From an uncultured delta proteobacterium (GTDB taxonomy: Bacteria > Desulfobacterota > Binatia > UBA9968): a stretch of 64,000 nt of DNA. The position numbers were made by a program, and so were the translations under genes. The stretch spans positions 480,001 through 544,000 of the forward strand of contig CAWFJP010000003.1 of assembly GCA_963816145.1 (NCBI GenBank), given 5' to 3'. The notes under the pieces were generated by a model that was not told where the DNA came from, made no database searches, and saw only the letters and a list, made by a program, of their open reading frames with translations. Of this stretch, positions 81 to 5,691 are shown in pieces. The first letter of the stretch is position 1. The number at the start of each line of letters is the position of its first letter.

Positions 81-1121
81 TCAATCCTCCACCACCTGCA
101 CCGCTGCCTCGACGCCGTTGCGCTTGAGGATCTCGACATACTCGCGCTGGATCGCCGGATCTTCGTCGGCCATTGGAATCATCGTCCAGGCCGGATTGCG
201 AAATCGGTCATGGCTGTATTTGGGACTATCGCCGCGCATGGCGAAGTGGCGCATGTTGCCTTTGCCGGTATTGAAATGGCCATGCCACATGAGATCGTTG
301 GGCGAGTAAACCGTGCCGACTTTGAATTCATGGCGCTGGCGCTCCTCGCCATCCCGCCACAACACCACATAACCCTCGCCCTGGGTGATGATGATCACCG
401 CCCCTGGCCCGTGCCGATGAAAGGTGCTGCGGCAACCGGGCGGAAACTCGGACACATGACAGCCGTAAGTCGTATCCGCCAGCGTGTAGCGCATATGCTT
501 GACGTTCTTGCCCTTCATCGGAAAGTCGTCGAGAGGGAAATGATTGACGTCCGGCACCAAGTTGGTCTCCCAGTAGCGGTCGGTGACATGCTTGTTGTAA
601 CGCAAAAACTCGTCGCCCTCATGAAAGCGGTCGCGGAAATTGAACGGATTACGGAAAATAAAATCCTCGTTGTGAAAGATATTGATCATCGCCGGGCAAG
701 TCGTGCCGACAAACAAACGGATTGGCTCGCTGCCCGAACCATTGAAGTGGATATAGGTGGAATTTAGCGGGATCGCAAAGATCGCCCCCGGCCCCCATTC
801 GAACGTGACTTTGGACTTCTCGTCCTGCCACACCGAGGTCGCGCCGCGCCCTTTGGCGACATAAACGATCTCCTCGAATAAATGGCGCTGCGGCAAAGTC
901 TGGCTGCTCGGCGGGATCTCGCAGACGTAAGCGTCGGTGCGCTGCTGATTGGAAAGGTTGAGATAGCAGCCCAACACCCCCATGCGCTCCCATTTGCCCA
1001 GCTCGAGGGTGGTCACGTCATTGACAACATTGCCCCTGACAATAGGAATACCTTCCTTTTGCAGCAATAGATCGTACGGCGTCGGGCCAAAATCCAAATG
1101 TTCGCGAAACGGTAATAGCAT
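81..1121 (-). CDS. Bicupin-domain protein
   Basis: 346-aa ORF with two cupin motifs (QRHLFEEIVYV...H and FHRHGPGAVI...WHGHFN). Confidence 0.8.
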   Translation of the reverse strand: MLLPFREHLDFGPTPYDLLLQKEGIPIVRGNVVNDVTTLELGKWERMGVLGCYLNLSNQQRTDAYVCEIPPSSQTLPQRHLFEEIVYVAKGRGATSVWQDEKSKVTFEWGPGAIFAIPLNSTYIHFNGSGSEPIRLFVGTTCPAMINIFHNEDFIFRNPFNFRDRFHEGDEFLRYNKHVTDRYWETNLVPDVNHFPLDDFPMKGKNVKHMRYTLADTTYGCHVSEFPPGCRSTFHRHGPGAVIIITQGEGYVVLWRDGEERQRHEFKVGTVYSPNDLMWHGHFNTGKGNMRHFAMRGDSPKYSHDRFRNPAWTMIPMADEDPAIQREYVEILKRNGVEAAVQVVED

Positions 1122-1197
1122 CGCTGGTTCTCCCCATTAGTCTCGTATCTCATAGCACGACGCGAGGCAACGATCACTCAAATCGACCGATGATGTT

Positions 1198-1231
1198 TAA
1201 TTCTCCATTATCAATTCTCCATTTTCCATTC
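1198..1231. repeat. Short degenerate heptamer tandem repeat (ATTCTCC/ATTTTCC)
   Basis: aattctccattatcaattctccattttccattc in the intergenic region. Confidence 0.5.
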
Positions 1232-1277
1232 CTCCCTCCTGTTGCCTAATGCCTATTGCCTCTCCTATATTCCGCCA

Positions 1278-1676
1278 ATGAAAGATAGCCTCTGTCCCGG
1301 TCTCACCCGAACCGCGTCCTATCAAACCACCATCGATATGCGCGCGCGCCAGCTCAAAGCCGATGTTTTCTCGACGCCGTCGATGATTAGCTTGATGGAA
1401 CGAACCTGCACGGAGCTTACAGAACCCTATCTCGATGACAATGAACAGACTGACGGCATTCACATCGACGTGCGCCACTTGGCATCGACGCGCATCGGCC
1501 AAGGCGTCACCATGAACGTCGAGATCATCGAGGTCAAAGGCCGCAAGATCCGCTATGCCATCGACGCCTACAACGACGCCGGCGTGAAGATCGGCGCGGG
1601 CACCCAATGGCGCGCGGTTGTCGACACCCAGCGCTTCGCCGGTGGGATCGACCGGGAGGCTGACTCTGCGGGCTAA
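1278..1676 (+). CDS. Hot-dog-fold thioesterase (fluoroacetyl-CoA thioesterase FlK-like)
   Basis: VFSTPSMISLME and G-I-H-I-D-V-R-H-L-A motifs; ATG at 1278 preferred as start. Confidence 0.75.
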   Translation: MKDSLCPGLTRTASYQTTIDMRARQLKADVFSTPSMISLMERTCTELTEPYLDDNEQTDGIHIDVRHLASTRIGQGVTMNVEIIEVKGRKIRYAIDAYNDAGVKIGAGTQWRAVVDTQRFAGGIDREADSAG

Positions 1677-1817
1677 AAATACTCGGCACCTATCCCCCAC
1701 GGAGCCATGTCGGCGAGTGCCATGGTTCGAGCGGCGCCTTGGCGACAATGAATTCTTGTTGCACCAGTGCGCCCGAACGGCGTAGATTCCACCATCAGAC
1801 GAAACTAGGAGGTCTTC

Positions 1818-2378
1818 ATGAAGCTATTTACCTACCGGCCTTGACCCTACGCCCACCGGACAAGGATTGTCCTGGCGGAAAAGCATCTCCCCTATGAGAC
1901 CATCGAGTGCGATCTCAAGAACAAATCCAAGGAATTGCTCGAACGCAATCCCTACGGCAAAGTGCCGGTGCTGGAAGACGACGGCGCGGTAGTCTACGAG
2001 TCGGCGATCATCGACGAGTATCTCGAAGAAAAATATCCGGCGGTTCGCTTGATGCCGAGTGACCTGGCCGAGCGCGCCCGCGCGCGCATCTGGATCGACT
2101 ACTGCAATACCCGCCTGCAGCGCGCCGGCGGCTTCGTCGCCCATGATTACAAAGTCGAGCAGTCCAAAGCGGAGATCGTCGAGTATTTGAGATTTCTCGA
2201 CGCCCACATGCGCGGCCGCGACTATATCGCCGGCGAGTATTCGCTCGCCGATATCACTTTTATCCCGTTTTTCACCCGGCTTGACCGTTACCAAGCAACC
2301 GTTGGCGATGACCTGCCGAATGTCAAAGCATGGGTGAAACGGTTGTTGGATCGACCGGCGGTGCGAGAAACGCTATAG
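1818..2378 (+). CDS. Glutathione S-transferase with in-frame UGA (probable selenocysteine at residue 9)
   Basis: RBS AGGAGG, then ATG 1818 reads MKLFTYRP-TGA(1842-1844)-PYAHRTRIVLAEK in frame with ORF 1935..2378 (NPYGKVPVL, ESAII, YSLADI); TGA sits at the Cys of the CP(Y/F)A(H/Q)R motif. Confidence 0.85.
1853..1875 (+). promoter_or_regulatory. Candidate bacterial SECIS element
   Basis: GGACAA(1858-1863)-GGA loop-TTGTCC(1867-1872), extended by CCA/TGG; G-first apical loop begins 19 nt after the UGA. Confidence 0.65.
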
Positions 2379-2424
2379 TCAATTGGAGTGATGTGGCTAC
2401 GCTAGACCGCTGGCCGCCAATTCC

Positions 2425-2505
2425 GTCATGCCGGTGAAAACCGGCATCCAGGGGGGAGTGGCGGGGCGGAATCGAAGCCTGGATTCCGGCCTCCGCCGGA
2501 ATGAC
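2425..2505. repeat. REP doublet (REPIN-like), family A, 81 bp
   Basis: Two inverted 26-bp arms GTCATGCCGG...ATCCA / TGGAT...ATGAC with a 29-bp spacer. Confidence 0.85.
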
Positions 2506-2547
2506 AGACACGGGAATAACAAACATGAACGGAGACTTATTTCGATC

Positions 2548-3536
2548 ATGGTTAGTTTCTTGGGATTACTAATTTTCATTTCATTGTTGGAGCGCCAGCA
2601 AACCTAGTCCATGCCGCCACCAACCTGACGAAAGTCCTCCTCACTACCGGCTCGGTGAGCGAGCGCGAAGCGGCCGTTTACGTCGCCCAAGAACAGGGCT
2701 ACTTCCGCAAATACGGTGTCGAAGTCCACTTCGTCCAGACGCGCAACGGTCCGGTGGGCATGGCGGCGCTCAGTTCCGGCGAGTCTCAGTTTCACTGGGG
2801 CTCGGTAACCGGCGCCAACCTCGGCGCCATCGCCGAAGGTGCCGATATCGTATTCGTCGCCGGCTTCATCAATCGCCTAACCGGCATGTTCATGGCCAAC
2901 CCCAAGATCAAGACCCCTGCGGAGTTGCGCGGCAAGAGCGTCGGCGTCAACAGTCTCAGCGGCGGCGGCTGGATCTTTTCCATGCTGACATTGGACCATT
3001 GGGGCCTATCGCCGGAGCGCGACAAGATCCAGTTCCGTTCCCTCGGCGATCAAAGCGTCATGGTCCAGGGGCTCATGGCGGGCACTGTCGACGCCGCCCT
3101 GGTCGGCTACGCCCATGGGAGAAATTTGCAGAACAAAGGCTACACAGTGCTCGCCGATGTGGAAAAGCTGCCGATTCCTTACCAAGGCTCAGGATTGATG
3201 TCGCGACGCAACTTCATGCGCGCTCAACCGGCGGTGGCGGAAAGTGTCTTTCGCGGCTTGATCGACGCCGTCAATTTTATCCGTAATCCGGCCAATAAGG
3301 CCGAAGTGATGCGCGCCGTCGCCAAGGGCATGCGCTTGGCAAAAGTGGAAGACGCCGAGGAAGGCTACAAAAGCCTGCCGACGATATACGACCAGAAAAT
3401 TTACCCCAGCGTCGACGGCATCCGCAATGTCATCCGTCTGCTTGGCACGACCAATGAAAAGATTCGCAAATTGAAGGCAGAAGATCTGATCGAAGATGCC
3501 GTGCTCAAGAAGCTCGAAAAGGAAGGCCGGTTCTAA
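2548..3536 (+). CDS. NMT1/SsuA/TauA-family solute-binding protein (probable frameshift in signal peptide near 2577)
   Basis: ORF 2655..3536 has GYFRKYGVEV, LRGKSVGV motifs; hydrophobic leader MVSFLGLLIFI from ATG 2548 lies in a different frame. Confidence 0.75.
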
Positions 3537-3571
3537 AGCTCTACTCGCAAAATCGATGCTGTCACTCGTTC

Positions 3572-3652
3572 GTCATTCCGGCGCAGGCAGGAATCCAGGT
3601 TTTCTTCGAGTTCGCGAAAACCAAGATGGATGCCGGCCTGCGCCGGCATGAC
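3572..3652. repeat. REP doublet, family A, 81 bp
   Basis: 26-bp inverted arms with 29-bp spacer, between convergent genes. Confidence 0.85.
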
Positions 3653-3659
3653 ACCCCGC

Positions 3660-4857
3660 TCAATTCACGAATTCGATCACGTCCAGGCCACGTTCCTTAT
3701 CCGTGACCCACAGTAAACCGCGGTGGTCCTTGACGACGTCGTTGGTCAGCGGCGCCGCCACCCCATCGCCTGGTTTCGGAATGAAGTATCCGCGCTCCTT
3801 GGGGTTCTCCGGGTCGTTGATGTCGATAATACGCAAACCGCCGGCGAACCAGGTGACGTAAAGCAGATTGTCCGCGTCCACCCGCTCACGTAATTGATGG
3901 GTGCCAAAGCGTACCTTATCAGCCGGATACGGCGTCGCTGACTCGGCCAAATAACGGGTGTGAAGCAGCTTCGGTTTCGTCGGATCACTGACATCCCAAG
4001 TCCGTAGCGGCCCGTGCGGCTTGCCGGTATCGGCGCCACGGTGGGTGCGTTCTTCCTCCGTCGAGACAGCGATGCGCTTACCGCCGATGGCATGGGGAAC
4101 TTTGAGAAAGGTGTGGGTCGGCTCCGGGCAAGGCGGGTCATATTGCACTGCATCGTAATGCGACAACGTGCGCGGCGCCATGATGTCACTGACATCAATG
4201 ATCGCGACGCCCGACATCCAGCAGCCAGCATACATTTCGTTGCCGCAGCGCATGGCATGGTGCAATCTGTGCTCGGCATGCTTCGGGTGCGGTGCGTCGC
4301 CGCCGGCGACATGCTGCCCCTGCATCCACCAACGGGAGACTTCCACCGGTTTCACCGGGTTGCGGATGTCATAGATGACTAGAATATTGCCGACGAATCC
4401 TTCCATCTCCGTGGAGATATAAGCGTAGTTCTCGTCGCAATCGAAGCGATGCACACCCTTGCCATGGGTTTTCACGAAGGTGATGAGCTTAGGATTTGTC
4501 CTGTCTTTGATATCGTAGATCCGAAAGCCGCCGTCGGGATAATCCCCGTGTTGACCGGGACCGCGCTCGAACTCGGAGTTGACCAGCATCAGAGTCGCCG
4601 ACCACACGCACCTTGTGCGAGTGCGACCAGGGGTGGTTTGGCATCAGCGTGCTGACGACCTTCGGCTTGCGTGGATCGGCAATGTCGAGGATCGTCGTTC
4701 CCTGGACCCGGTGTTGATGGCCGACATAGGCATAATTCTTATCAAGGACGATCTGCCCGCCGCCCTCAAGCTCCATCCGGCTAAGATGGCGAATATTCGC
4801 CGAACCGCGCGGCGCGTTGCCGCTGTCGCTTTCCGCTGTGGCCAAAACTTCATTCAT
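3660..4857 (-). CDS. LVIVD-repeat beta-propeller protein (single frameshift near 4590)
   Basis: Repeated xIxDVSDPxxP units; ORF 4489..4857 (…HSHKVRVVGD) joins ORF 3660..4607 (LMLVNSE…) through one extra base. Confidence 0.75.
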
Positions 4858-5075: not shown

Positions 5076-5363
5076 ATGCGCGTGAGAATGACCGAAGTCT
5101 ATCAAGACTGGATCAATTCTCTGAGAGATCGGGTCGCCCGCGCTCGTATCCAGGTTCGCGTCGATCGTTTAGTCCACGGCAACCCAGGACAATACCGAAA
5201 TCTGACCGACGGCGTCTGCGAATTGAAAATGGATTTCGGTCCCGGCTATCGCGTCTACTACACGGAGCGGGCCGGCGCCTGCGTCATATTGCTTGCCGGC
5301 GGCGACAAATCGACGCAGCAACGAGACATCAAAACCGCGATTGCCTTAGCTAAAAACCTTTGA
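5076..5363 (+). CDS. Type II TA toxin, RelE/ParE/HigB family (addiction module killer protein)
   Basis: GVCELKMDFGPGYRVYY and LLAGGDKSTQQRDI motifs. Confidence 0.9.
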   Translation: MRVRMTEVYQDWINSLRDRVARARIQVRVDRLVHGNPGQYRNLTDGVCELKMDFGPGYRVYYTERAGACVILLAGGDKSTQQRDIKTAIALAKNL

Positions 5364-5373
5364 AGGGACTGCC

Positions 5374-5691
5374 ATGCGAAAGAAAACCGCCAAAGCCACT
5401 GCGAAAACCAAGACCGTTCCCTACGACGTAGCCAACCAGTTGCGCACACCCGAGGAAATGGCTGCGTATCTGGACGCGTGGCTCGCCGATGCGCCCGACG
5501 ACGCCGCCGGGATCGCCCGCGCCCTCGGGGACATCGCCCGTGCCAAGGGCATGTCGAAAGTAGCGCGCGATACCGGTCTAAGCCGGGAAAGCCTTTATAA
5601 GGCGCTAAGCGACACCGGCAACCCAAGCTTTGACACCGTGCTGAAAGTCGCCAGAGCGCTCGGATTACGCCTGCACGCAGAGGCGGCTTAG
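5374..5691 (+). CDS. Addiction module antidote protein (HTH antitoxin)
   Basis: [30 protein letters not shown]…GNP motif; directly downstream of the toxin. Confidence 0.9.

Follow-up and report, generated by a model that had tools for sequence, protein, structure and literature searches.

In a 2005 study of the Sargasso Sea, a glutathione S-transferase (GST) is named among 15 new selenoprotein families, with 4 sequences (Zhang, Fomenko & Gladyshev; PMC1088965), and the tables of the 2008 Global Ocean Sampling (GOS) analysis give a GST selenoprotein family with 12 selenocysteine (Sec) versus 1,036 Cys sequences (PMC2398784). Reviews from 2022 and 2026 list it as “GST-like” with “largely uncharacterized” functions (PMC9312934, PMC13188914). 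The marine family belongs to COG0625/PF13409, has one Sec and no UxxC-type motif, and was predicted through Sec/Cys homology and a bacterial Sec insertion sequence (SECIS), without experimental characterization. Here, we analyze a member of this kind from an uncultured bacterium of the Binatia lineage (assembly GCA_963816145.1; 7.8 Mb in 31 contigs, 99.5% complete, 6.7% contamination), located in a 64,000-nt stretch of contig C3 (positions 480001–544000), hereafter “the window”. We hold with high confidence that positions 1818–2378 of the window encode a 186-residue cytosolic-type GST with a catalytic Sec, decoded from UGA by means of a downstream hairpin.

This Sec-GST belongs to the already predicted kind of GST selenoprotein, the likeness being drawn from published tables rather than from representative sequences. 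It differs from the marine family in its setting, i.e., an order of soil and wetland bacteria rather than marine reads, in which the gene occurs mostly as two paralogues and, within the genus, next to conserved neighbors. A preliminary description of this DNA had spoken of Sec-GST-like sequences from environmental DNA as rare and little characterized; as a predicted selenoprotein, the family has been in print since 2005 (PMC1088965, PMC2398784, PMC9312934, PMC13188914). Our literature search returned natural Sec-GSTs only in predicted lists and reviews, and otherwise engineered enzymes; it returned no paper joining Binatia with selenocysteine, and the deep-Sep paper does not mention GST. The elements of the locus on which the argument depends are as follows.

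1807–1812, + strand: Shine-Dalgarno sequence AGGAGG, read directly from the sequence, 5 nt before the ATG
1818–2378, + strand: complete selenoprotein GST coding sequence, 186 codons plus stop TAG at 2376–2378, translated with TGA as Sec (U)
1842–1844, + strand: UGA read as Sec, residue 9, in the context P-U-P-Y-A-H-R, from column conservation and Cys/Ser alignment
1851–1878, + strand: SECIS-like hairpin, core 1857/1858–1863 with 1867–1872/1873, lower helix about 1851–1856 with 1874–1878
1935–2378, + strand: 147-residue open reading frame (ORF) with a TTG start, from mechanical ORF listing

With TGA translated as Sec, the GST frame reads MKLFTYRP-U-PYAHRTRIVLAEK... from the ATG at 1818–1820 and contains this one internal stop only. 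The preliminary description had reported a strong ribosome-binding site and an ATG leading through an in-frame UGA into a complete GST, cut to 147 residues by the ORF track; we recovered the same 186-residue frame, and the ORF listing gives only 1935–2378, which is an artefact of taking the UGA as a stop. GGAGG-type sites were likewise visible 5′ of the homologous ATG in what looked like most of the homologous loci read.

Next, we evaluated the conservation of the TGA through a six-frame protein search of the window’s genome and 40 relatives (24 of the same genus and 16 of the same order, from two other families). Exactly one TGA was present in 57 of the 58 matches with ≥50% identity across these 41 genomes, the 58th beginning at residue 15 and leaving the site uncovered, while no match at ≤45% identity contained a stop. 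At least one TGA form was found in 38 of the 41 genomes, most of which carry two Sec paralogues; these counts include two matches from genome G005, without which they become 55 of 56 matches and 37 of 40 genomes. When individual loci were read, the TGA fell in an identical column in all 31 (30 of 30 without the G005 locus, L038), within the motif P/T/M/R-U-P-Y/W-A, and 8–9 conserved codons and a ribosome-binding site preceded it in the homologous loci. A collection of named genomes, sharing many contigs with the 31-locus set, gave the same column in 38 of 44 loci, the other six comprising two Ser-type sequences (A/S-S-P-N-C-Q-R) and four in which the site was uncovered. In one homologue (L087), the frame breaks off after 105 codons and the locus exceeds its neighbors by one base, probably through a long-read indel or a true frameshift.

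The window’s own genome encodes a second Sec-GST paralogue (C18:167158–167715, locus L014) with 53% identity and the motif T-U-P-Y-A-H-R. It has the hairpin as well, and a GST of the Ser type is encoded about 18 kb away (C18:148356–148940). More distant TGA forms were found in a metagenome-assembled genome (MAG) of SAR324 (L088, 44% identity), where the TGA falls in the same column, and in a second type labeled Binatia (L089, 46%). The relatives, all MAGs, are filed in public records as Candidatus Binatia, Deltaproteobacteria, Thermodesulfobacteriota or Syntrophobacter sp. Close homologues (E ≤ 1e-45) occurred in 2 of 301 genomes of an even phylum sample, both of the same family and one of them the window’s own, and in none of 8 same-class genomes outside the order. 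Among the genomes searched, the core Sec-GST clade is thus restricted to this lineage, without any claim of absence elsewhere. Uncultured bacteria of soils and wetlands have retained the gene across an order, usually in the form of two paralogues; this retention is new.

The TGA is also present in sequencing runs, which we examined as Logan contigs. A 253-nt contig from a soil DNA run (X1) covers 1806–2058, differs from the window only at 1991, and keeps the TGA, indicating that the TGA is no assembly error. From soil RNA libraries, a contig of run X16 corresponds to 1841–2015, with the TGA only in its last bases, and one of run X15 to 2146–2378; the TGA lies outside the contigs of runs X3 and X15. 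These RNA contigs give a weak hint of transcription.

The genome is equipped to decode UGA as Sec. Contig C30 carries selA (616 bits), selB (417 bits) and selD (380 bits) as direct neighbors, each above its curated cut-off, and selD (C30:565877–566803, locus L010) itself has a single in-frame TGA in the context AAG-U-AAK. About 10 kb downstream of selA-selB-selD, aragorn located a tRNA-Sec with anticodon TCA (C30:576761–576855), scoring 74.2 bits against the Rfam RF01852 cut-off of 47. All four components that the preliminary description had proposed to look for are therefore present above cut-offs. Of 41 related genomes, 36 had selB above its cut-off, including all 22 with ≥90% completeness and ≤5% contamination. 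For glutathione (GSH) synthesis, gshB scored 399 bits in the window’s genome and a glutamate-cysteine ligase of plant type 483 bits, each exceeding its cut-off, while a search of the genome for the E. coli-type gshA (PF04262) found none.

We then examined the hairpin that follows the UGA. GGACAA (1858–1863) pairs with TTGTCC (1867–1872) around the apical loop GGA (1864–1866), and RNAfold extends the stem to 1853–1878 with a bulged U. The perfect GGACAA/TTGTCC stem and G-first loop given in the preliminary description stand, with a corrected geometry: the stem begins 13 nt after the UGA rather than 19, the first loop G (1864) being the element at 19 nt, and the loop is 3 nt long. In the window copy, the outermost core pair is a C-U mismatch, the first Arg codon being CGG instead of the usual AGG. 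Bacterial SECIS elements follow a spacing rule of about 16–37 nt, as bSECISearch is described, and the 7-bp stem, the GGN loop and the position of its first G agree with such an element. The E. coli fdhF SECIS is likewise a coding-region hairpin that follows directly on the UGA and presents Gs of its apical loop to SelB. The Sec-GST element differs from it in combining a perfect stem of 7 bp with a GGN loop of 3 nt, and in lacking a conserved bulged U in its upper stem. An Rfam scan of 1700–2700 with E up to 10 returned no SECIS family.

Since thermodynamic stability alone is not significant, the significance of the hairpin comes from homologue comparison. The form AGGACAA-GGN-UUGUCCU recurs over 68 loci (54 distinct 102-nt sequences). 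In a covariation alignment of 45 distinct 45-nt rows, from which L038 was left out, 98.1% of the cells of the 7-bp stem were paired, compared to only 29–44% in controls with the 3′ partner slid by 1–3 columns, and loop positions 1–2 were GG in all 45 rows. Both sides had changed in two of the seven stem pairs, i.e., pair 21–27 (AU 37, GC 3, GU 1, UA 1, other 3) and pair 18–30 (GC 44, AU 1), and none of 500 shuffles matched the covariation score. The three-pair lower helix was less regular, with 91% of cells paired. The hairpin was not found in the six Ser-type sequences examined (paralogues L015–L017 and L020, homologues L090 and L091).

A second line of evidence came from codon choice in 52 distinct full-length coding sequences. 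Over the hairpin, Arg16 is AGG in 52 of 52, Arg14 AGG in 48, Val18 GTC in 51, Leu19 CTG in 49 and Thr15 ACA in 44, while Leu codons elsewhere in the Sec-GST use 4–6 synonyms. Normalized codon entropy was 0.369 for codons 10–20, about half of the 0.743 found in the remaining 91 columns that are conserved and degenerate (Mann-Whitney p = 4e-4, to be taken only as indicative given the relatedness of the sequences), and in a sliding window it was lowest exactly over the hairpin. Compensatory changes and suppressed synonymous variation thus both bear out the conservation of the hairpin that the preliminary description had set as a test.

The protein itself is a GST. Pfam assigns GST_N_3 (79 bits, 3.1e-22), GST_C (48 bits, 1.6e-12) and GST_N, all above gathering scores, and an AlphaFold model built from an alignment of 44 rows of Sec, Cys and Ser forms reached a mean predicted local distance difference test (pLDDT) of 97.7 and a predicted template modeling score (pTM) of 0.92. 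The model has a thioredoxin-like N-domain and a helical C-domain together with glutathione-site residues, as cytosolic GSTs do. Because strand β1 spans residues 2–5 and helix α1 residues 10–21, U9 lies at the strand-helix junction, at the site of the catalytic Cys or Ser in GSTs. Two residues of the input alignment, P50 and S62, do not vary at all, and E61 reaches a conservation of at least 90%; we take P50 to be the cis-Pro before strand β3, and E61-S62 the Glu-Ser pair before helix α3 that belongs to the glutathione site.

Assignment to a GST class is less clear-cut. Foldseek returned solved GSTs of the SspA-like, tau, omega and zeta types with TM scores of 0.87–0.93, the range over all matched types, nu included, being 0.84–0.93, and NCBIfam offered no specific model, the best (SspA, FzlA, maiA) all scoring far below their cut-offs. 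The preliminary description had called the protein omega-like: the UPYA motif and the CP[FY]A of its Cys homologues support the comparison, while the class is not established, tau, SspA-like and omega GSTs matching about equally well and the N-terminal extension being absent. Omega GSTs have a proline-rich N-terminal extension of about 19 residues that packs against the C-terminus. Compared to human omega GSTO1 (PDB 1eem; phmmer E = 2.6e-25), U-P-Y-A parallels C-P-F-A, and U9 falls on the catalytic Cys32 by residue offset (query residue 2 being chain residue 25); an enzyme-glutathione mixed (seleno)disulfide would be the expected shared chemistry. The differences are Sec in place of Cys, only 8 residues before U9, a length of 186 residues versus about 240, a match that starts at chain residue 25, and a similarity that does not exceed the one to tau or SspA-like GSTs. 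In the PDB, the soybean tau enzymes GmGSTU4-4 (2vo4) and GmGSTU10 (4chs) match best by sequence (E = 2e-28 to 1e-27, TM ~0.9), and their catalytic Ser13 aligns with U9; natural tau enzymes use Ser and conjugate xenobiotics, and their seleno forms are man-made, whereas here Sec is encoded. The top structural matches are SspA-like GST homologues (4qq7, 6v91, 4hoj; Foldseek E = 5e-14, TM 0.88–0.89). SspA is an RNA-polymerase-associated regulator rather than a redox enzyme with a catalytic Cys or Sec, and identity with SspA was rejected at 85.2 bits against the NF007016 equivalog cut-off of 314.

The residue found opposite Sec9 in other GSTs was read from an exhaustive HMMER search over 1.84 billion cluster representatives, the best 150 of which we mapped at query position 9. 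The position was covered in 124 of these 150, with Cys in 91, Ser in 32 and Asn in one; the other 26 are N-truncated and leave it uncovered, many of them probably being miscalled Sec forms. The Cys-type motif among these representatives is typically C-P-F/Y-A/C-x-R, and the best Cys forms (P0124 and P0125) have 45–46% identity and read ...CPFAHRTRI and ...CPYALRTRI. The TGA in one column, distant homologues with Cys in a CP[FY]A-type motif and the retained hairpin together are the pattern that the preliminary description had expected of homologues. In a maximum-likelihood tree, 20 of the 22 Sec rows formed one clade with support 98/98, while L088 and L089 sat among Cys and Ser forms outside it. 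The Sec label requires three changes on this tree, of which well-supported branches force only one, so that these branches are compatible with a single origin of Sec; the placement of L088 and L089 hints that a single GST active site may have switched from Cys or Ser to Sec more than once.

From these observations we infer that selenium is truly incorporated. Translation would start at the ATG at 1818 and, at the UGA at 1842–1844, the hairpin would recruit SelB with Sec-tRNA(Sec), leading to insertion of Sec instead of termination. In the folded protein, U9 would sit in the glutathione site between β1 and α1, in the place of the catalytic Cys of omega-like or Ser of tau-like enzymes, and would act as the nucleophile, as Cys does in omega-like GSTs: its selenolate would attack a glutathionyl mixed disulfide or another oxidized or electrophilic substrate, and the Se-S-glutathione (or selenenic acid) enzyme intermediate would be resolved by further GSH. 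By analogy, the Sec-GST may function as a thiol transferase or reductase that depends on glutathione, with peroxidase activity as a further possibility; the Sec-dependent thioltransferase/deglutathionylase proposed in the preliminary description is a putative function of this kind.

Several points weigh against this interpretation. The hairpin taken alone is unexceptional, with a minimum free energy of −14.5 kcal/mol, z = −1.1, and 27 of 200 shuffles as stable, and some sequences of hairpin-less paralogues fold as stably by chance. The covariation amounts to 5 cells in 2 pairs, the conserved peptide H-R-T-R-I/L-V-L forces part of the hairpin’s conservation, and a 3-nt apical loop is small compared to the E. 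coli fdhF element. Run X1 is possibly not independent of the assembly, and RNA libraries may hold DNA. As to the chemistry, the nearest stop-free relatives in the same genomes are Ser-type and not Cys-type, so that Sec9 may instead have a Ser-like role and merely activate GSH.

A different view of the function accepts the same Sec decoding and makes the protein chiefly a glutathione peroxidase on a GST scaffold instead of a thiol transferase or deglutathionylase, a natural counterpart of engineered seleno-GSTs, in which H2O2 or an organic hydroperoxide would oxidize Sec9 to selenenic acid and two GSH would recycle it. The alignment of U9 with Ser13 of the soybean tau enzymes 2vo4 and 4chs, the best PDB sequence matches, speaks for it. 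Chemical conversion of this very Ser13 to Sec in a tau GST abolished conjugation of 1-chloro-2,4-dinitrobenzene (CDNB) and conferred H2O2 reduction, and with cumene hydroperoxide kcat rose 177-fold and kcat/Km 2746-fold (PMC10812501). A Sec-GST has also been made in E. coli with the fdhF SECIS (PMC10778597). The neighbors of the gene (an FlK-like thioesterase, a bicupin and an SsuA-like binding protein) give no pointer to peroxide defense, however, and natural Cys homologues with CP[FY]A exist, which by the general example of omega and lambda GSTs are expected to be reductases or thiol transferases. Overall, we regard a chiefly peroxidatic enzyme as a tentative alternative that is rather unlikely, and slightly less likely still the wider proposition that a natural encoded seleno-GST serves as glutathione peroxidase or hydroperoxide reductase on a GST scaffold, as two paralogues across an order of soil bacteria.

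Two further explanations dispute that Sec is encoded at all. Should the TGA be a true stop, or else an error of sequencing or assembly, the product would be the 147-residue ORF from the TTG at 1935, or the locus a pseudogene; mechanical ORF calling yields just this ORF, and nearly all of the best database relatives (119 of 120) are annotated in the same N-truncated form. This we judge very improbable given that a single TGA is kept in 57 of 58 homologues from 38 genomes and in the same column of 31 of 31 loci, with conserved codons and a ribosome-binding site ahead of it, synonymous constraint concentrated directly behind it, and its retention in the X1 metagenome contig, while the 147-residue product would lack β1, α1 and β2 of the thioredoxin-like domain. 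In addition, the likely consensus errors that the preliminary description noted elsewhere in the window are indels and not substitutions. Alternatively, a suppressor tRNA or a reassigned genetic code might have the TGA read as Trp or Gly, in favor of which stands one database entry (P0019) called with W at the site. Against it, TGA terminates 742 of 1920 long stop-to-stop frames in the genome (a rough count) and is therefore an ordinary stop there, the Sec machinery is complete, each gene has a single TGA that is always at the catalytic position, and neither residue aligns at position 9 in the 124 covering representatives; such a reading is more improbable even than a true stop. The in-frame TGA at 1842–1844 is, in our reading, almost certainly a genuine Sec codon at the catalytic position of a GST.

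The genes around the Sec-GST, and more distant features of the same end of the window, are listed below.

81–1121, − strand: divergent bicupin protein, Cupin_2 + Cupin_1 by Pfam, 84–92% identity beside the GST in same-genus loci (tblastn)
1242–1676, + strand: FlK-like hotdog thioesterase (Pfam PF22636, 1.1e-26), directly upstream of the Sec-GST
2655–3536, + strand: NMT1/SsuA-like binding protein, downstream of the Sec-GST
3660–4607, − strand: LVIVD-repeat protein, with a sub-threshold match to PF05694 (56-kDa selenium-binding; 30 bits against a cut-off of 34)
5076–5363 and 5374–5691: toxin-antitoxin pair of a HigB/Gp49-like toxin and an HI1420-type helix-turn-helix (HTH) antidote

In tblastn searches, bicupin and thioesterase accompanied the GST in many same-genus loci, with thioesterase identity down to about 58–65%, and were not seen at the GST loci of the other families. 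The FlK-like thioesterase is a possible operon partner of the Sec-GST. NCBIfam gave the bicupin no specific assignment, and a gentisate/maleylpyruvate-isomerase reading of bicupin plus GST was dropped at 26 bits for 5-aminosalicylate dioxygenase against a cut-off of 650. Just 3′ of the GST stop, the region 2419–2510 contains palindromic units (about 2422–2452 and 2477–2506) that recur about 37 and 68 times in the genome (blastn-short) and reach summed depths of 400–4400 in soil and wetland metagenome contigs; they look like a family of intergenic repeats of the repetitive extragenic palindromic (REP) type. This repeat gives spurious short ORFs (2428–2607 and others) and chance microRNA-type Rfam hits (2415–2516). 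Upstream of the LVIVD-repeat gene, an overlapping ORF (4489–4857) suggests a longer gene or a frameshift.

Finally, we surveyed how such proteins are annotated, using the 120 best relatives in a collection of 5.8 billion proteins, nine of which we read. All but one of the 120 were 129–177 residues long and covered 69–94% of the query. Eight of the nine sequences read start downstream of the TGA, and the ninth (P0019, 211 residues) was presumably called under genetic code 4. The sources name these proteins simply “glutathione S-transferase (family protein)”. Databases therefore hold the Sec-GST almost only as N-truncated fragments without the catalytic residue, which is new, and the truncation of 119 of the 120 best relatives means that selenoprotein counts fall short in this lineage, which is abundant in soils and wetlands.

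GST selenoproteins, a rare kind, have stood on predicted lists for twenty years and have never been studied at the bench. For specialists the Sec-GST is no surprise in kind; it is useful for annotation and as an experimental entry point. The clade combines a wealth of natural sequence variants and a compact SECIS with conserved neighbors and with closely related Ser and Cys forms for comparison. The benefit of Sec to a GST thereby becomes directly testable, a question that links up with the engineered peroxidases of the seleno-GST type.

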